Notes: a model not told the origin generated them from the sequence alone. 64,000 bases of DNA from Blastocatellia bacterium (GCA_035455165.1 DATIFP010000007.1:9631-73630); one strand, 5' to 3'; positions 52,751 to 61,404 are shown, counted from the first letter of the stretch. Numbers and translations: made by a program.

Positions 52751-53686
52751 ATGCTGGGCGCCCTCATCATCGACAAACCCGCAGGCATCACTTCGCACGA
52801 CGTTGTAGATCGAGTGCGCCGCGCCACGGCTATTCGCCGCGTCGGACACGCAGGAACGCTTGATCCCTTCGCAACCGGAGTCCTGGTATGCTGCGTCGGC
52901 CGCGCCACGAGACTCGTCCAGTTCCTGGTTGGCCTCGATAAGGAATACGTCGCGAAAGTCAGGCTGGGCTTCGCAACCGATACCCAGGACGCCACCGGGA
53001 AACAGATCACCCCAATTCGCTCATCAAACGAGGTGAGCCTCGAAGACCTGCGAGGAATTCTGGAACAATTCACCGGCCCCCAGTTGCAGACGCCGCCGAT
53101 GTTCTCGGCCAAGAAAGTGGGCGGGGAGAAGCTGTATCGCGCGGCACGCGCGGGCCGCGACGTCCCGCGCGAACCGGTGAGCATAACGATCCACTCGATG
53201 GAGTTGATCGAGGGCGATGGAGCGGCGTTGACTTTGAACGAAGACGGCACTCTCGACTTTCGAATGCGCGTCCGTTGCTCATCGGGCACCTATGTCAGGA
53301 CGCTTGCTCACGACATCGGCCGGCGACTGGAGGTCGGCGGGCACTTGACCGGATTGCGCAGAACGGCAGTCGGCCACTTTCATGTCGAGGACGCGCTGAC
53401 GCTGGAGGAACTGGAATCGATAGGGCCCGATCAACTGCGTGACGCGTTGATCGATCCGACCGCGATGCTCTCGCACCTGGCGCTCCTCCGGCTCGATGAC
53501 GACCGGGTGAGACGAGTAGCGACCGGGCGGGGATTCTCGCTGCTCGAGGACGAGTCGGCGATTTCAGAGTCCACGGTCCCGATCCGCTTGTGCGATCAGT
53601 CGGGCAAGCTCGTTGGCGTAGGAACATTCGATTCGGCTCTCAGGTTGGTGAAGCCCATCGTAGTCCTCGAGGTTGGGCCGCCGTGA
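52751..53686 (+). CDS. truB: tRNA pseudouridine(55) synthase
   Basis: 'GALIIDKPAGITSHDVV' and 'GHAGTLDPFATGVL' contain the catalytic Asp motif. C-terminal PUA-like region. Confidence 0.85.
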   Translation: MLGALIIDKPAGITSHDVVDRVRRATAIRRVGHAGTLDPFATGVLVCCVGRATRLVQFLVGLDKEYVAKVRLGFATDTQDATGKQITPIRSSNEVSLEDLRGILEQFTGPQLQTPPMFSAKKVGGEKLYRAARAGRDVPREPVSITIHSMELIEGDGAALTLNEDGTLDFRMRVRCSSGTYVRTLAHDIGRRLEVGGHLTGLRRTAVGHFHVEDALTLEELESIGPDQLRDALIDPTAMLSHLALLRLDDDRVRRVATGRGFSLLEDESAISESTVPIRLCDQSGKLVGVGTFDSALRLVKPIVVLEVGPP

Positions 53687-53729
53687 GCAAATCGATCATT
53701 TGCGCAAAAAAAGCGGGCTTGCAGCGCTG

Positions 53730-53738
53730 TGCTATAAT
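53730..53738 (+). promoter_or_regulatory. Extended -10 promoter-like element (TGcTATAAT) in truB-prkA intergenic region
   Basis: Perfect TATAAT preceded by TGn. About 300 nt upstream of prkA. Confidence 0.3.
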
Positions 53739-54040
53739 GCTGCCAGCTATTGGAGCTAAGACGGATCGTTGAGTTCGAACTAAGTTTTGACAAGATGCTT
53801 CGCTTTGATTTATCGAGGTTGAGCGTGCATCCAGTCGAGCCACGAACAGCCGGATCCATACCGACTGTGCGCCCGCGAGGGCGTAGACTGAGTGTCGTCC
53901 TAACTCTCGCATTGAGTAAGCCAAATGAGCCGTTTAAGGGTGGCCCCCGCAGTGAAAACGGTTCGGATCACAATCGATCAGCGCGCACGGTTGTGGGTTG
54001 CCGCCCACGGACCAAGGCCTGAATCGATTCGGAGGTAGAC

Positions 54041-55966
54041 ATGGGAGAGAATAAGATTAACCTGAGCGACCTCCTTGAAACTCATCGCCGCGACCGCGAG
54101 CGGCTTGCCTGGGAAGGAACATTCAGAGATTACTTCGAACTGGTTACCCAAAACCCAAGCAGTTCGAAGCTCTCGCACGCGCGGATCTGCGACATGATCC
54201 TTGCGGCCGGCGTGGAGAAGATCAACGAGGGATCCAGGGACGAAATAGTAAAATACGAATTTTTCAGCGATGAGCTTTTCGGGATAGAGCGTCCGATCTC
54301 AAGAATAGTCGAGTATTTCAAATCGGCCGGCCAACGGCTCGAAGTCCGAAAGCGAATTCTGTTGCTGATGGGTCCGGTGGGCGGCGGCAAATCGACCATC
54401 GTCACGATGCTCAAGCGTGGTCTTGAGAAGTGGTCGCGCACCGGTAACGGCGCGGTGTACGCGATTAAAGACTGCCCGATGCACGAAGAGCCTCTTCATT
54501 TGATCCCTCCGGAGCTCAGGCCGGAAATAGAGAAACACTACGGGATATATATCGAAGGCGAGCTGTGCCCGCAGTGCCGCTACAACCTCGAGCACGTGTA
54601 TCGAGGACGTCACGAGGACGTGCTCGTTCATCGCATCGTGTTCTCCGAGAAGGACCGCATCGGGATCGGCACCTTCGCTCCGTCTGACCCGAAATCTCAG
54701 GACATCACCGAGCTGACCGGCTCCATAGACTTGTCGACCATCGGCGAGGTCGGCGTCGAATCCGACCCGCGCGCGTACCGCTTCGACGGCGAGTTGAACA
54801 TCGCCAATCGCGGCCTGATGGAGTTCGTCGAGATGTTGAAGGTCGATGAGAAGTTCCTCTATAGCTTGCTGACGCTAAGCCAGGAACAGAACATCAAGAC
54901 CGGCCGGTTTGCCCTGATCTATGCGGACGAGGCGATCATCTCCCACACTAACGAGAACGAATACTCAGCGTTCGTCGCGAACCGCAAGAGCGAAGCGCTG
55001 CAAGACCGGATCATAATGATCAAGGTCCCCTACAACCTGAAGGTGTCGCAAGAAGAGCGAATCTACGACAAGCTGTTGAAGCAATCGGACGCGCTTCGAA
55101 ACATTCACATCGCGCCCAGCACTCTGAAGATCGCCGCGATGTTCGCGGTAATGACCAGGCTCGAAGAACCGAAGAAGGCAAACATAGACATCGTCAAAAA
55201 GATGAAGCTATATGACGGCGAGGACGTCGAGGGCTTCAAATCCAAGGACGTGCGGGATCTCAAGGAAGACACCGTGCGCGAAGGAATGGACGGGATCAGC
55301 CCGAGGTACATCATCAATCGCCTCTCCGGCGCGCTGGTCAAAGACAATATCACCTGTATCAATCCAATCGATGCGTTGCGCGCCATCAAGGACGGGTTTG
55401 AGCAACACACCGGTATCTCCGCCGAGCAGCGGGACCGCTATTTGAACCTGGTTTCCGTCGCGCGGCGCGAATACGACGAAATCGCCAAGAATGAAGTGCA
55501 GCGGGCGTTTGTCTACTCGTTCGAGGAGATGGCCAAGACCGTATGCGACAACTACCTCGACAACGTGGAAGCGTACTGCAACAAGGAGAAGCTCAAGGAC
55601 GCCATCACCGAAGAAGAGATCGAACCGGACGAAAAGCTGATGCGCTCGATTGAGGAACAGATCGGCATCAGCGAAAACGGTAAGAATACTTTCAGGCAAG
55701 AGATTCTCATACGAATCTCCAGTCACGCGCGAAAGGGCCGGCCCTTCGAGTACAAATCGCACGAGCGGCTGAAAGAGGCGATCGAGAAGAAGATATTCTC
55801 CGACCTGAAGGACGTGGTGAAGATCACCACATCCACGAAGACGCCGGATGCGGACCAGCTTCGGCGCATCAACGAAGTGATCGATCGATTGGTATCGCAG
55901 AGCGGGTATTGCACGGTTTGCGCGAACGAGCTGCTGACTTATGTGGGGACGCTGTTGTCGCGATAG
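54041..55966 (+). CDS. prkA: PrkA family serine protein kinase (YeaG)
   Basis: 'LLMGPVGGGKST' Walker A and PrkA-family similarity throughout. 641 aa. Confidence 0.9.
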   Translation: MGENKINLSDLLETHRRDRERLAWEGTFRDYFELVTQNPSSSKLSHARICDMILAAGVEKINEGSRDEIVKYEFFSDELFGIERPISRIVEYFKSAGQRLEVRKRILLLMGPVGGGKSTIVTMLKRGLEKWSRTGNGAVYAIKDCPMHEEPLHLIPPELRPEIEKHYGIYIEGELCPQCRYNLEHVYRGRHEDVLVHRIVFSEKDRIGIGTFAPSDPKSQDITELTGSIDLSTIGEVGVESDPRAYRFDGELNIANRGLMEFVEMLKVDEKFLYSLLTLSQEQNIKTGRFALIYADEAIISHTNENEYSAFVANRKSEALQDRIIMIKVPYNLKVSQEERIYDKLLKQSDALRNIHIAPSTLKIAAMFAVMTRLEEPKKANIDIVKKMKLYDGEDVEGFKSKDVRDLKEDTVREGMDGISPRYIINRLSGALVKDNITCINPIDALRAIKDGFEQHTGISAEQRDRYLNLVSVARREYDEIAKNEVQRAFVYSFEEMAKTVCDNYLDNVEAYCNKEKLKDAITEEEIEPDEKLMRSIEEQIGISENGKNTFRQEILIRISSHARKGRPFEYKSHERLKEAIEKKIFSDLKDVVKITTSTKTPDADQLRRINEVIDRLVSQSGYCTVCANELLTYVGTLLSR

Positions 55967-56254
55967 CCCGGGCGCGAAGCTGTCGACGTTCTTGACCGGC
56001 GACCGATCGGCTGCGCTCAGCTCGTGCTAACCGTGGGCGAGGACTTGGATGGTCGTGCGGGCAAACTATTTGAAGAAGTTGCTGCTATCGGAACGGCGGT
56101 TCTTATCAACCAACTGGTTTCTCCCAAAGGTGAAACCGGGCCCTTAGGGCCGCGGCGGAAAAGCTCGATCCAGCTTTCAATCCCGGTAAGTCGTACGAGC
56201 GACCTGGCGGTGTGAATCCAGCCCACGGCTCACCGAGGGCGTTAAGTATTGCCG

Positions 56255-57712
56255 ATGACGCCAGGTACGTTTGTGAGGACGCTGATGTTTTGTCCGAAGT
56301 GCGCAACCGAAAACCCCGATGCCAACAGATACTGCCGGGCATGTCGCGAGAATCTGCAACTGGTTTCCCAAGCGATGAAGGGTCGGGCTCCGGTCGTACT
56401 TGCAGGTAAGGTTGATCAGATACTGGACAGCAGAAGCGAACGGTTTCGGCGGGACAGCCTATTGAACCTCCTGATGTTCATGGCCGTGCTGGTGGGCGGC
56501 TTGGTAAGCTGGCAGAAGGGATACTCCGGGCCTTACAGTGAGCCCCTCTTCTTCATACCTCTAGCAATTCTTTCCGCGAGGCAGGCTCTTCTAGAATATC
56601 GCGCCTACAAGCGAAGCCTGTCACCAGATTTTGATTGGAAGGGACCCGATCACGAGCACCGCGAACGCGTTGCGCACCCTGATTATCGCGTTTTTAGGGG
56701 ACGCTCTTTGGCGGATTCTGACTGGAGAGGAATCGGGCAGGAAGACTATCGAAATACTTTGGGCTATCGGCTCGGCAGGTCTGTTCGGACACTTTCTCTC
56801 AGGCTGAGGAGGCTGCTGATGTTCGGGTCGGCAGTCCCTCCCGGACTACCTCAATTTGCAGCGGGTCAAGAAGGGGCGAACGACACAGCGATGACTGCTG
56901 GATATCATGCTTCCGGTTCGCTTTCGGCGACTGCATCAACGGCTCGGCAACGCCGTGCAACGGCTGCCGCCGCTCACAGCGAATCCTTTGACCAAGCATC
57001 ACACGCCAGGTACGTTGCTGATACTTATCTGGAGAGTGCGACTGGATCGATAGGCCGACAACTCGATTCATCAAACACAGGGTTCAAAAACGAGCCGCTG
57101 ATTATCTATTGCCCGGTTTGTGGCGAGGCAAACGGCTCGCAGCCCAGCCGATGCGGTGCTTGCGGAACAAGCCTCGGTCCGATCGCCGAACGTCTGAAGC
57201 CTTCGAGCCAAAACGCTCGGACAGCTAAGCTCGATCGGTTTATCAGAGCGAAAGCCGAGGGGCTAGTTTCGGCAAGCGAGCACCTGTCGCTCTCAGTCTC
57301 GGTTGGCTTGGTGGCGCTAACCCTCCTTGTCGGCGTCTGGTCGTCGTGGTCGGCCCCCGGCTGGTGGTACAGTCTGTCTCTGTCAATCGTTGTTTGTATT
57401 GCGCATGCCTGGGACCGCATAGCCTACAGACGCATCTCTCGCGAACAGGGATCTGTTGAGATGAATGAGCACGGCATGACGCGGGGTTCCTGCGCTCGAG
57501 CAGAGATTTTCGATTCGGATGAGAGGAAGCCGCTTCACGAATGGCAACGCCTGTATCGAGGCCTGTGGCTTCTCATAGAGGTGACTTCCGAAGACGAAGC
57601 GGGAGTCTCTGACGGAAGACTGGTAGCCACAGCCGAAGACCGCTCTGCGTTCCGCGACCTCGATCAGACATATGATGAGCGCTACTTGATTGCGATCTAC
57701 GCGGGGTATTGA
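56255..57712 (+). CDS. Duplicated zinc-ribbon / transmembrane protein of unknown function
   Basis: Two modules, each a 'CPxC...CxxC' zinc ribbon ('CPKCATEN..CRAC', 'CPVCGEAN..CGAC') followed by two TM helices. Start could be 56249, 56255 or 56285. Confidence 0.55.
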   Translation: MTPGTFVRTLMFCPKCATENPDANRYCRACRENLQLVSQAMKGRAPVVLAGKVDQILDSRSERFRRDSLLNLLMFMAVLVGGLVSWQKGYSGPYSEPLFFIPLAILSARQALLEYRAYKRSLSPDFDWKGPDHEHRERVAHPDYRVFRGRSLADSDWRGIGQEDYRNTLGYRLGRSVRTLSLRLRRLLMFGSAVPPGLPQFAAGQEGANDTAMTAGYHASGSLSATASTARQRRATAAAAHSESFDQASHARYVADTYLESATGSIGRQLDSSNTGFKNEPLIIYCPVCGEANGSQPSRCGACGTSLGPIAERLKPSSQNARTAKLDRFIRAKAEGLVSASEHLSLSVSVGLVALTLLVGVWSSWSAPGWWYSLSLSIVVCIAHAWDRIAYRRISREQGSVEMNEHGMTRGSCARAEIFDSDERKPLHEWQRLYRGLWLLIEVTSEDEAGVSDGRLVATAEDRSAFRDLDQTYDERYLIAIYAGY

Positions 57713-57761
57713 TCGGGCCCATTCGATTTGTAAAAGCCATTCCCCGGTTCGGAGTGATGTT

Positions 57762-58916
57762 ATGTCAGTACAACGAAACGATTGGTCGCTTCAACGCAAG
57801 GGTCAGATAGATCAGGATCGCCACAAGGAGCGCGTGCGGGACGCGATCAAGAAGAACCTCGGCTCGATCGTATCCAACGAGTCGATCATCCTTTCGGACG
57901 GCAAACGAGTGGTAAAAGTGCCGATTCGCTCGCTCGATGAATACAAGTTCCGCTTCGACTATCGAAAGAAGAAACACGTCGGAACCGGCGACGGCAACAC
58001 GAAGGTCGGAGACGTGATCGGCCACGAGGCGCAACCCGGCCAGGGTCAGGGCCAGGGCGGCGATCAACCGGGGCAGGAATACTTTGAGGCCGAGGTAGAC
58101 ATCGATGAGATTGCCAAGCTGATCTTCGAGGACTTGCACCTGCCGTACCTCGAAGAGAAGGCAAAACATGCCGTTCCATCCAAGTCCACGAAGTTCACCG
58201 AGATTCGTCGCGCGGGCATCCTCTCGAATCTCGACAAACGCCGCAGCATTCTCGAAAACATAAAGCGCCAGGCGCGCGAAACCGGTGAGCCGCGCCTCGG
58301 CCCATTCAAGAAGGAGGATTTGCGCTACAAAACCTGGGAACAGCAGATGACCTACGAGTCGAACGCCGTCGTTATCGCGATGATGGACGTCAGCGGCTCG
58401 ATGGGCGAATTCAAAAAGTACATCGCGCGATCTTTCTACTTCTGGATGGTGCGATTTCTCAAAACCAAATACGACAACGTGAAGATAGTGTTCATCAGCC
58501 ACCACACAGAGGCGAAGGAGGTAACAGAAGAACAGTTCTTCACCCAAGGCGAGTCCGGCGGAACGGTAGTCTCGTCTGCATACCGTCTGGCGCTTGATGT
58601 GGTTGACTCGCGCTTCCCGGCCAGAGACTGGAATATCTACCCGTTTCATTTTTCCGACGGCGACAACTACTACTCGGACAACGACGAGGCGGTGAAGCTC
58701 GCAGACGAGTTGATAGCCACGTGCAATCTTTTTGGCTACGGCGAAATTGGAGAAGAAGGCGCGTCGAGCTACCGGCGCTCGTCTGGCGCATTGCTGTCAA
58801 TCTTCAAGGACAGACTCAAGAGCCAGGATCGCTTTGTCGGCGTGCGCATCGACGACAAAGAGGACGTTTATCCGGCGCTGAAGGAGTTCTTCGGCAAACG
58901 CGGCGAAGAGGCGTAG
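57762..58916 (+). CDS. YeaH/YhbH (DUF444) family protein
   Basis: GGAG RBS. Family similarity including the C-terminal VWA-like 'AMMDVSGSM' motif. Confidence 0.85.
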
Positions 58917-58920
58917 GGAT

Positions 58921-60348
58921 ATGGTCGACAAAGAAGTACTGGAACTCGAAAAGGCAGTCGAACAGATCTGGGACGTTGCCACCAACAGGTTCGGCCTCGA
59001 TCCGTTTCCCGTGCGATTTGAGATCGTCCCGGCGACTGTAATGTACGAAGTCGGGTCCTATGCGTTACCCGGCCGCTACTCGCACTGGACTTTCGGCAAG
59101 GCTTACCATCGAATGAAGATGATGTATGACTTCGGCTTGTCGAGGATATACGAAGTCGTAATCAACTCGAACCCTTCTTACGCCTTCCTGCTCGAGACAA
59201 ACTCCCCTACGCAAAACAAGATGGTTATCGCGCACGTGCTCGGCCACGTAGATTTCTTCAAGAATAACGTGTACTTCTCCAAGACCAACCGTCGAATGGT
59301 CGATGAAGCGGCTCTGCACGCCCGGCGGATGGCCGAGTACGAATTCAAGCACGGCCGCAAGGTTGTGGAAGAATTCCTTGATGCGGTGCTCTCAATTGAG
59401 GAGCACATAGATCCGAACTTCTTCATCAAGAAACCTGTTCAAGACCATCCTGACGAGACAGATAAGCAGCCGCGCCGGCGAGAAGGGCGCTATGATGATC
59501 TCCTCTCCAGGCAGGAGCTGCAGATGCAGGACGAAAGCCCGGACCTCGATTCCGAGCGACGGCACAAACCAAGTATCGACGTCCCTGAAAAAGACCTGGT
59601 CTATTTCATAATGAAGAACTCGCCCGCCCTCGAACCCTGGCAGCGCGACGTGATGGCAATGCTCCACGAGGAGATGGAGTACTTCATCCCGCAATTACAG
59701 ACGAAGATTATGAATGAAGGATGGGCGAGCATCTGGCATTCCCGAATCATGCGAGAGCTGGATTTGCCCACTGATCAATATCTCGAATTCGCCGAGTTGC
59801 ACGCCGGAGTCGTGTCGCCGCACAAAGGGCAGCTCAATCCTTACTATCTCGGCTACAAACTATTTGAAGACATCGAAAAACGTTGGGACAATCCCACCAA
59901 TGAAGAGCGCGAGAAGTTCGGCCGCACCGGAGACGAGGGCCGCGACAAAATGTTTGAGGTGCGGGAGCTCGACAACGACATTTCGTTTCTTCGCAACTAC
60001 TTGACCGAGGAAATGTGTGAGGAGCTGGATCTGTTCGTTTACCAGCTTGTCGATGAGGAAGACTGGACGGTCACCGAGAAGAACTGGGAGCGCGTTCGGA
60101 GTCAGCTTACCGCTAACATGACCAACTTCGGGTTCCCTTACATCGAAGTGATTGACGGCGATTATGACGGAAACCGCGAGTTGTACCTGATGCACCGCTA
60201 TGAGGGAGTAGAGCTGGAAATGAAATACGCCCGCAAGACCCTCGAGTACGTCTACAAGCTCTGGGGCCGCGATGTGCATCTCGAGACTCAAGTCGATGAA
60301 GAGCCTGTTGTAATGCACTACGACGGAAACGAACACGACGAAGACTGA
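58921..60348 (+). CDS. spoVR: SpoVR family protein
   Basis: '[31 protein letters not shown]' is strongly SpoVR-like. 475 aa. Confidence 0.9.
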
Positions 60349-60504
60349 AAACGCGACAAGGAGCAAGTTTCAGTTCAGAGCGCAGGCTTCAGCTCTGGTG
60401 CTGAACCCTAACATGTTGCGTTGCTCTTAGCCTCTTCCTCGTTCACTGTATTTTGGTGGATCTCAGTAGTCCGTCTCATCTAGACTTCAACAACGAGGAA
60501 CGCA

Positions 60505-61404
60505 ATGCACCAGCTAAAGCTGCCAACAATCCTGTTTGTTCTCACGCTATTGATTCTCAACGTCGTGCCCCCGGCGGCCGCGTGGGGAGAGGAGGGCCAC
60601 CGTTACATCAATCGCGTCGCCGCGGAACGCCTGCCTCCAGACATGCCCGCCTTTTTTCGGAGCGCCGGCGCGCGGCTCACTTTTCTAGGTCCCGAACCCG
60701 ATCGTTGGCGAGACGGCAGGGAACTCTATAAAGCGCTGAGCGAAGTTAACGGCCCCGATCATTTTGTCGATATCGACAAACCCGAGACCTTCGAGGCGCT
60801 CCCAAATGACCGTTACCTTTATGCCGACTGGCTTCGCTCTCAGGGAAAGGACCCGAAAGACATAGGCTATTTGCCGTATTCGATTCTCGAAGGCTTTGAG
60901 AAGGTTCAGGTCTTGTTTCGCATGTGGCGGGACCCTCGCAACGAACCCGAGCGCGATCAGATCGAGCAGAACATCATCTATTACGCCGGGGTTCTCGGTC
61001 ACTACGTCGCTGATGGTTCGCAGCCACTTCATGCCTCGATACACTACAACGGCTGGAGCACCAGCTCGAATCCGCAACTCTTCAGTCGCGAGCCCTTGCA
61101 CGGGCGATTCGAAAGCGAGTACGTCAAAGCGCAAATCAAACCCGAAGATTTTGGCGGGTTGGTCAAGGCCGCCACGAAACTGCAAGACCCGTTCGCGGAC
61201 ATCGTCAAGTACCTGATCGATTCCTACAATCACGTCCCGGAACTGTACCGAATGGAGAAGACCGCTCGATGGGACGCAAACAATCGAAATGCTGAGTCAA
61301 AGAGATTCGTGACTGAGCGCCTCGCTGCCGGCTCACAGATGCTCGCGAATCTCTGGTACACCGCCTGGCTCGGTTCGGCAACACAAAAACCTGAAGGCCA
61401 ATAA
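60505..61404 (+). CDS. S1/P1 nuclease family protein, secreted
   Basis: Signal peptide followed by 'WGEEGH', the mature N-terminus typical of S1/P1 nucleases. His/Asp zinc ligands. Confidence 0.8.
   Translation: MHQLKLPTILFVLTLLILNVVPPAAAWGEEGHRYINRVAAERLPPDMPAFFRSAGARLTFLGPEPDRWRDGRELYKALSEVNGPDHFVDIDKPETFEALPNDRYLYADWLRSQGKDPKDIGYLPYSILEGFEKVQVLFRMWRDPRNEPERDQIEQNIIYYAGVLGHYVADGSQPLHASIHYNGWSTSSNPQLFSREPLHGRFESEYVKAQIKPEDFGGLVKAATKLQDPFADIVKYLIDSYNHVPELYRMEKTARWDANNRNAESKRFVTERLAAGSQMLANLWYTAWLGSATQKPEGQ

Follow-up and report, generated by a model that had tools for sequence, protein, structure and literature searches.

A zinc-ribbon membrane protein encoded between prkA and yeaH in a Blastocatellia genome, a possible accessory of the PrkA-YeaH-SpoVR module

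We analysed a 64,000-nucleotide (nt) stretch of DNA (the window) from a metagenome-assembled genome (MAG) of a soil acidobacterium of the class Blastocatellia (Acidobacteriota). In this stretch the prkA-yeaH(DUF444)-spoVR gene trio carries an additional gene between prkA and yeaH. The inserted gene encodes a 475-amino-acid (aa) zinc-ribbon (ZnR)/transmembrane (TM)-hairpin membrane protein, made of two related modules and a C-terminal domain that occurs in relatives as a separate gene in the same slot. On the evidence of gene neighbourhood and domain fusion, the two grounds on which the proposal stands, we suggest that the protein may be a lineage-specific, membrane-anchored accessory of PrkA-YeaH-SpoVR in a subset of Blastocatellia, and we hold the case for and against this proposal in even balance.

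The PrkA/YeaG-YeaH-SpoVR module is very widespread and is important for starvation survival and sporulation, while its activity, targets and location are disputed (kinase, protease or AAA+ remodeller). Accessory genes with a tight and specific link to the module, including a membrane-anchored one, would be testable candidate partners or clients and hint at action at the membrane; if the inserted gene is only cargo, it is of local interest. The yeaG, yeaH and ycgB genes cofit, act together and make up one operon in the majority of bacteria (10.1101/072470). PrkA itself is AAA+ ATPase/protease-like, and its activities as a kinase and as a protease are contested (PMC9512850, PMC13001217). No accessory membrane component of the module was described in the literature that we found.

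The inserted gene and its protein

An earlier note on this window had placed a 487-aa gene at 56255..57712. A gene does intervene there, and the maximal open reading frame (ORF; 56249-57712) encodes 487 aa from TTG. The start given in the note is 30 nt too early: nine of nine homologues begin MFCPKC, which puts the true start at ATG 56285, with GAGGA 6 nt upstream. The gene is real and under purifying selection. An annotated NCBI protein from a Blastocatellia MAG (P0001) is 100% identical to its product, and nine full-length homologues share 35-54% identity with it (alignment A1), with all eight ribbon cysteines invariant and both hairpins kept. The ratio of nonsynonymous to synonymous substitution rates (dN/dS) is 0.28-0.33 for the ZnR gene, compared to 0.09-0.16 for small121 (a short gene of the same slot, described below), 0.014-0.038 for yeaH and about 0.02 for prkA; the evolutionary rate of the ZnR gene is about ten times that of prkA or yeaH. 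The view that the ORF arose by chance, is a pseudogene or comes from faulty assembly would find support only in the low confidence of the AlphaFold2 (AF2) model and in the low-complexity middle region. Set against the conserved cysteines and hairpins, a dN/dS of about 0.3, the identical protein annotated at NCBI and a good ribosome-binding site (RBS), this explanation is effectively refuted by the conservation data. No paralogues of the ZnR gene or of small121 were found elsewhere in the window.

The protein has two modules, A and B, separated by a linker and followed by the C-terminal domain (Table 1; residues are numbered in the 475-aa protein). The two tandem zinc ribbons and the two TM helices described previously were recovered, with the ribbons present in duplicate and two hydrophobic segments after each. 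Both ribbons have the form CPxC-x10-CxxC, using C3, C6, C17 and C20 in module A and C276, C279, C290 and C293 in module B. The homology of the modules is seen in a local self-alignment score of 72, against 29.6 +/- 4.8 (maximum 60) in 200 shuffles. In module A, a conserved helix (...SKVDQILDSRSERFRRDS) precedes TM1 (about aa 58-78) and TM2 (about aa 86-106); in module B, TM3 and TM4 lie at about aa 333-354 and 359-379. Family-averaged hydropathy has two peaks in each module, with K/R-rich flanks and a short uncharged loop. By the positive-inside rule, we infer an N-in/C-in hairpin, which would leave both ribbons, the linkers and the C-terminal domain in the cytoplasm. AF2 helices at 40-78 and 87-112 coincide with the hydrophobic positions, with predicted local distance difference test (pLDDT) values of about 70-78. 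The linker is length-variable and poorly conserved in A1, and its AF2 pLDDT is below 50.

A profile built on roughly the first 113 residues describes the repeat unit as a ribbon, a helix (SK-DxxLxxxSERFRRD), two TM helices and the basic motif AYRRSL. In the family at large, every unit is closed by the motif (S/T)VTExTTRxL (consensus of 48 members, alignment A7), often at the extreme C-terminus, and this motif could be a docking or degradation signal. The window linker ends in a degenerate copy, ESATGSIGRQLD (about aa 250-261, window about 57032-57067). After module B, the motif is replaced by the ~70-residue C-terminal domain.

This domain, which the earlier note had overlooked, is related to small121, a 121-126-aa ORF found directly 3' of prkA in relatives and belonging to no Pfam family. 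In tblastn searches, small121 from loci L001 and L003 matched the window at the C-terminal domain (4e-12 and 6e-11), and the A1 profile matched small121 ORFs at 1e-14 to 2e-23. The small121 core motif, W..LY....L.IEVT.ED....G.LIATAE....F..L, is represented in the window by HEWQRLYRGLWLLIEVTSEDEAGVSDGRLVATAEDRSAFRDLD (alignment A4). Stand-alone small121 (about 123 aa) has a proline-rich tail, YG.P.DPRPIPLPP.FWLG, whereas the fused window domain ends in ...LIAIYAGY and is tail-less. The AF2 core of the domain reaches pLDDT 74-91 with elements in beta-alpha-beta-beta-alpha-beta order, and no structural neighbour was found for it in the PDB. We considered whether small121 could be a paralogue of a PrkA, YeaH or SpoVR domain and rejected this (hhalign probability <1%).

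There are at least 60 homologues of small121. In every context that we read (L001, L003, L004, L010, L012, L018, L029, L033, L084 and L164-L172), the most divergent member included, the order is prkA-small121-...-DUF444. In relatives, small121 often precedes a gene for a retropepsin-like protease, and the window lacks both; searches by tblastn and blastn found no free small121 in the window. The protease (Asp_protease_2, 125-128 aa, cytoplasmic) has an intact IDTGA (DTG) motif and comes right after small121 in many relatives, at 7599-7985 in L001 and at equivalent positions in L004, L010, L012, L018, L029, L033, L084 and L166-L172.

Comparison with known families placed the ribbon and little else. 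The inserted protein passes the gathering threshold of DZR (PF12773; 30.1 bits, cutoff 27.3). For its non-ribbon parts, sequence searches of Pfam, NCBIfam, PADLOC and the PDB returned no known family, only zinc-ribbon models and sub-threshold matches. DZR membrane proteins such as TcaA likewise carry a CxxC-x10-CxxC ribbon at the N-terminus, ahead of membrane helices, and the match of the inserted protein to the TcaA model is weak and confined to the ribbon. It differs from them in that its helix, hairpin, AYRRSL and TExTTRxL elements lie outside every Pfam model, it has no extracytoplasmic domain, and it carries the unit twice, joined to small121. CptA/YgfX (PF07254) also forms a two-TM hairpin with both ends cytoplasmic, and module B (aa 329-396) matches it weakly. 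We rejected membership in that family, as the match scores 19.8 bits against a cutoff of 27.3 and no SdhE/CptB partner gene is present; among the 48 scanned members it is listed only for P0001, and the family is absent from the 25 most-matched families. Ruc (Rv0991c), a redox-regulated chaperone with a zinc ribbon and a disordered tail, is a precedent for ribbons that work as a redox/zinc switch (PMC7448276). The inserted protein also combines a Cys4 ribbon with a long disordered region, whereas Ruc is a soluble protein with one ribbon; no sequence relationship is claimed.

Table 1. Coordinates of the features discussed, counted from the first nucleotide of the window.
Feature	Position	Strand	Basis or remarks
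Extended -10 promoter-like element TGTGCTATAAT	53728..53738	+	Sequence reading; 41 nt downstream of truB stop
Putative 302-nt prkA 5' leader	53739..54040	+	Distance from -10 to prkA ATG
Conserved leader core (~120 nt), candidate cis-regulatory RNA	53791..53911	+	Nucleotide conservation
prkA (AAA+ PrkA/YeaG family, 641 aa)	54041..55966	+	PF08298 + PF06798
318-nt spacer, prkA to inserted gene	55967..56284	.	Unique to window genome; stands where relatives carry small121 +/- retropepsin gene
Inserted gene, two-module ZnR/TM-hairpin membrane protein + small121-like C-terminal domain, 475 aa	56285..57712	+	Homologues, RBS
Module A (aa 1-118)	56285..56638	+	Cys4 ribbon, helix, TM1, loop, TM2, EYRAYKRSL; family profile A3
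Variable linker (aa 119-273), probably disordered	56639..57103	+	A1 length variation, low pLDDT
Module B (aa 274-392)	57104..57460	+	Second Cys4 ribbon, helix, TM3, TM4, WDRIAYRR
C-terminal small121-like domain (about aa 405-475)	57497..57709	+	tblastn, A1 profile, AF2
yeaH/yhbH (DUF444, vWA-type, 384 aa)	57762..58916	+	PF04285, TIGR02877, homologue-set start, RBS
spoVR/ycgB (475 aa)	58921..60348	+	PF04293 + PF24755

The prkA-yeaH slot in relatives

The earlier note had regarded absence of the inserted gene from all relatives, together with a separate promoter and no co-regulation, as evidence against its interpretation. When prkA loci were compared, the family was instead found to be kept in the same slot. 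All full-length homologues with readable context (L001/L002, L003, L084, L166, L167, L168) lie between prkA and DUF444, in loci arranged as prkA-small121-(retropepsin-like Asp_protease_2)-ZnR-DUF444-spoVR with co-directional genes and intergenic distances of 15-99 nt. The closest split or fused relatives (L031, L085, L169-L173) are also located between prkA and yeaH. Those single-module relatives that come nearest to module A (49-58% identity) belong to tandem A+B gene pairs in this slot, accompanied by the small121 and retropepsin genes in L171 and L172 and free of them in L173. L169/L170 contain a fused pair together with a split pair, L031 and L085 have fused pairs that lack the C-terminal domain, and L028 retains a truncated remnant. 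Across the prkA-linked A/B loci, PrkA is 85-95% identical.

In a neighbour-joining (NJ) tree of the modules, prkA-linked A modules group in a single clade and prkA-linked B modules in clades of their own, with non-linked members outside. Because A and B modules are in separate clades, the A/B duplication predates the prkA-linked subfamily. The window modules fall in the prkA-linked A and B clades and the gene is co-directional in the slot, so it belongs to the A/B-pair subfamily on both counts. The A/B pair therein takes split, fused and fused-plus-C-terminal-domain forms, all confined to the prkA-yeaH slot, which supports an accessory role. Judged from these sequences, the window-type protein arose by the addition of a small121 copy. 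Since two slot-restricted components have been fused, domain-fusion logic suggests that the ZnR pair and small121 work together.

The ZnR/hairpin unit itself is widespread (523 clusters at E <= 1e-3, most of them having one unit or two fused), and Pfam has a model for its ribbon only. Of 80 metagenome loci that the module profile retrieved, just 2 adjoin prkA (L084 and L085, the two closest). Away from prkA loci, members with one unit are typically found as a pair of neighbouring paralogues (metagenome loci L087, L089, L092, L110 and L124); a heterodimer of two hairpin units is suggested as the functional form of the family.

It had been stated that nothing normally lies between prkA and yeaH, and this does not hold for the class. 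We examined 69 species-representative Blastocatellia/Pyrinomonadaceae loci, each with a prkA end and a yeaH start. The two genes are 16-210 nt apart in 29/69 loci and are separated by 0.3-3.7 kb of diverse, unrelated genes in the other 40. Common interruption of the module in the phylum, which the earlier note had named as a ground for abandoning its proposal, is thus what these species loci display. The slot contains small121 and the retropepsin gene in 6/69 loci and a ZnR form in 2/69. Among the other contents, seen in Pyrinomonadaceae loci (L036-L083), are an alpha/beta hydrolase that bears an N-terminal TM helix (at least 13 loci), a methyltransferase with a GNAT protein (L049, L063, L073), coiled-coil proteins of 150-175 aa (L038, L043, L053, L065) and an 835-aa LRR-Roc-COR-TIR protein (L048). 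In Pyrinomonadaceae, the yeaH-spoVR junction is interrupted as well, and measures 3-5 kb in several loci. The readiness with which the prkA-yeaH junction takes diverse genes in Blastocatellia calls for caution in deriving function from position alone.

Accessory component or cargo

If the inserted gene is an accessory of the module, it would be co-transcribed with prkA, yeaH and spoVR, and its small121-like domain would contact the PrkA (AAA+)/YeaH (vWA)/SpoVR machinery as an adaptor, a regulator or a client. The A/B hairpin pair would tether this contact to the membrane, and the zinc ribbons might bind proteins or sense redox state or zinc. With neither soluble small121 nor retropepsin in the window genome, the tethered copy of the domain would be the only one left. 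In AAA+/vWA pairs such as RavA-ViaA and MoxR-type systems, the vWA protein links the ATPase with a particular client, often at the membrane. PrkA is likewise an AAA+ ATPase, and the YeaH translation contains a MIDAS-like DVSGSM motif of the vWA-type DxSxS form. By this analogy, an operon-encoded small domain could be an adaptor, regulator or client held at the membrane by the A/B hairpins. No homology ties the ZnR protein or small121 to known clients or adaptors; the analogy is functional only.

Operon-like gaps are found in relatives (the 15-99 nt given above) and downstream of the window inserted gene, where 49 nt and then 4 nt separate genes on the same strand. Across the cluster there are 5 terminator-like sites against 7.9 expected by chance, none of them convincing. 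Upstream of the inserted gene, the window has a 318-nt spacer that the earlier note had passed over. It has no blastn or tblastn similarity to related loci and no small121 or retropepsin remnant; it contains only an unsupported 63-aa GTG ORF (56024-56215), and the site scan called neither a promoter-like nor a terminator-like element there.

The main rival explanation is that the ZnR protein is a passenger: the prkA-yeaH junction would be a recombination-prone slot, and the protein would be independent of the PrkA module, possibly read through from it. We consider this possible, if on the unlikely side. A number of observations count against an accessory role, several of them in favour of a passenger. 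With unrelated genes in 40/69 junctions, and with yeaH-spoVR junctions interrupted too, position is weak functional evidence. The ZnR gene is dispensable for the module, since most species representatives do not have it. Synonymous divergence (dS) disagrees between the cassette and prkA of the same loci (L001 versus L167: ZnR gene 0.32, prkA 1.15; L167 versus L166: small121 0.08, prkA 0.31), which indicates that the accessory cassette has been exchanged as a mosaic by recombination among related genomes. The broader ZnR family is mostly not linked to prkA: the other loci recovered with the module profile, often tandem pairs, lie among unrelated housekeeping genes, and the neighbours of these members share no theme beyond housekeeping (SpoU methylase, AroDE, ThiF, ABC-F, S41 peptidase). 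The remnant in L028 is decayed. Because the spacer preceding the inserted gene is unique to the window, co-transcription is less certain here than in relatives, and the spacer could carry a promoter of the gene's own. Finally, the full-length AF2 model is poor (overall pLDDT 49.7), and small121 was found to have no similarity to PrkA, YeaH, SpoVR or a known fold that would hint at binding.

A passenger would not readily explain why a whole subfamily, in three architectures, is restricted to this slot across loci with PrkA 85-95% identical, why one form is fused to a domain that otherwise occurs only as a gene in the same slot, or why the genes are always co-directional and tightly spaced. A lineage-specific membrane anchor or regulator of PrkA, as originally proposed, therefore stays the best reading in view of the confinement of the subfamily to the slot in relatives, while the argument from position is weakened by the variability of that slot.

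Two further explanations give the neighbouring genes a different role. Small121, the retropepsin and the ZnR pair might form a conflict- or defence-type cassette (e.g. anti-phage or toxin-like) in a hotspot, perhaps with the PrkA module as effector or sensor. The fast evolution of the accessory genes (dN/dS 0.1-0.3, versus 0.02 for prkA), the mosaic recombination, the TIR-containing Roc-COR protein in the same slot of L048, a weak match of the relatives' retropepsin to the PADLOC candidate PDC-M08B (E 1e-4) and the sub-threshold likeness of module B to the CptA/YgfX toxin hairpin would all fit such a cassette. We judge it improbable, given that every supporting match is below curated thresholds, that PrkA, YeaH, SpoVR, ZnR and small121 have no match in PADLOC 2.0 (E <= 0.01), that the loci contain no mobile-element genes and that the window has neither the protease nor small121. 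Alternatively, the membrane protein or its released C-terminal domain might be a client or substrate that PrkA/YeaH remodels or degrades, with the relatives' retropepsin cutting the linker and the tether controlling availability of the domain. The long, disordered and length-variable linker between the modules, the retropepsin with an intact DTG motif encoded immediately upstream in relatives, and a report that Bacillus subtilis PrkA is an ATP-dependent protease (PMC9512850) are in keeping with this scheme. Here too the protease gene is missing, from L173 as well as from the window, no cleavage site or degron was identified, and Bacillus anthracis PrkA had negligible protease activity in vitro (PMC13001217), and we regard the scheme as quite improbable.

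Returning to the accessory reading, a more specific and rather doubtful version of it is that small121, in its free form or joined to the membrane-anchored ZnR A/B pair, acts as a hitherto unrecognised direct partner (adaptor, regulator or client) of the PrkA/YeaH/SpoVR machine, and that the operon is also under a new, clade-specific ~120-nt leader RNA. If this were true, the 'operon-encoded clients' of Blastocatellia could reveal what the module does and where, namely at the membrane.

The core module and the prkA leader

The prkA-yeaH(DUF444)-spoVR trio reported earlier is present and intact, as determined from the ORF list and Pfam/NCBIfam scans. PrkA has both domains of the PrkA/YeaG family (PF08298, 1.6e-128, aa 27-380; PF06798, 1.4e-93, aa 385-634) and is 82-95% identical to PrkA of 80 Blastocatellia loci. 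YeaH/YhbH is a full DUF444 match (PF04285, 4.2e-109; TIGR02877, 522 bits, cutoff 468), and SpoVR has both the SpoVR (PF04293, 5.9e-143) and SpoVR_C (PF24755, 1.4e-16) domains. As in the known module (YeaG-YeaH-YcgB; PrkA-YhbH-SpoVR), the three genes are co-directional and in canonical order, and with TIGR02877 above cutoff the trio is of the Bacillus PrkA-YhbH-SpoVR type. It differs from the known module in that prkA and yeaH are 1.8 kb apart with an extra membrane-protein gene between them; relatives of the window have up to five extra genes there, unlike the canonical arrangement. The 1795-nt gap holding the 475-aa gene exceeds the ~100 nt or less used as the limit for contiguous genes. The yeaH stop and the spoVR start are 4 nt apart.

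The stop of the inserted gene was previously thought to overlap yeaH. Only the maximal yeaH ORF, extended to TTG 57690, overlaps it; homologues support a start at ATG 57762, with GGAG 7 nt upstream, and this leaves the 49-nt spacer after the TGA at 57710-57712.

Upstream of prkA, the extended -10 proposed earlier was borne out, as was the ~300-nt length of the putative leader. The element is conserved as TGTG(C/A)TATA(A/C)T in 17 loci with PrkA at least 92% identical, and it is separated from the prkA ATG by 302 nt in the window; the leader measures 281-327 nt in 15/16 related loci. Lacking a -35 element at 16-18 nt, the site was passed over by a consensus -35/-10 scan. A sigma-54 promoter or a standard -35 upstream of the -10 was rejected on inspection, as the spacing is unfit.

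Within the leader, a core of ~120 nt has a mean identity of 80% over 17 loci (90% in the best blocks), compared to 56% at prkA third codon positions and 41-51% in the rest of the leader. Its indels are not multiples of three, and a hairpin in it varies in length, being absent from L014/L015 and extended in L005. Loci that lack the cassette have the core just as those that carry it do, so the core goes with prkA rather than with the insertion. A proposed 4-helix fold allows 95.9% of cells to pair, with low variation and 1 compensatory pair. The covariation score was 0.058, versus 0.051 for shuffles, and was reached by 23/500 of them at low sequence variation; the single-sequence fold was unremarkable (z = -0.73). 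A cmscan of 53000-61000 found no Rfam match in the leader, the sole match being LPR10 (E = 0.23) inside spoVR on the minus strand. The covariance model built from the core (R1) scores 140 bits in the window and has no match in 68 more distant loci. On this pattern of conservation, the leader core is a candidate clade-specific regulatory RNA.

It should also be noted that inteins with LAGLIDADG homing-endonuclease domains split all three core genes in various relatives; the window genes are intein-free. Inteins in yeaH (L014 9009-11461, L020 9004-11459, and L169/L171) lie inside the MIDAS-like motif (DVSG/C...HN/SM, with slashes at the intein ends). Those in spoVR (L016 10186-12830 and L042 11423-14049) lie in a conserved NEGWA/C...HN/SIWHS motif, and the intein position probably marks NEGWA/SIWHS as a functional centre of SpoVR. 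The prkA intein is at 2651-5923 in L164. Furthermore, two separate prkA loci occur in one MAG on two occasions, L005/L006 in SMAG_U9503 and L079/L081 in MFD09206.bin.2.183, which may mean that the module is present twice or that the bin mixes strains.

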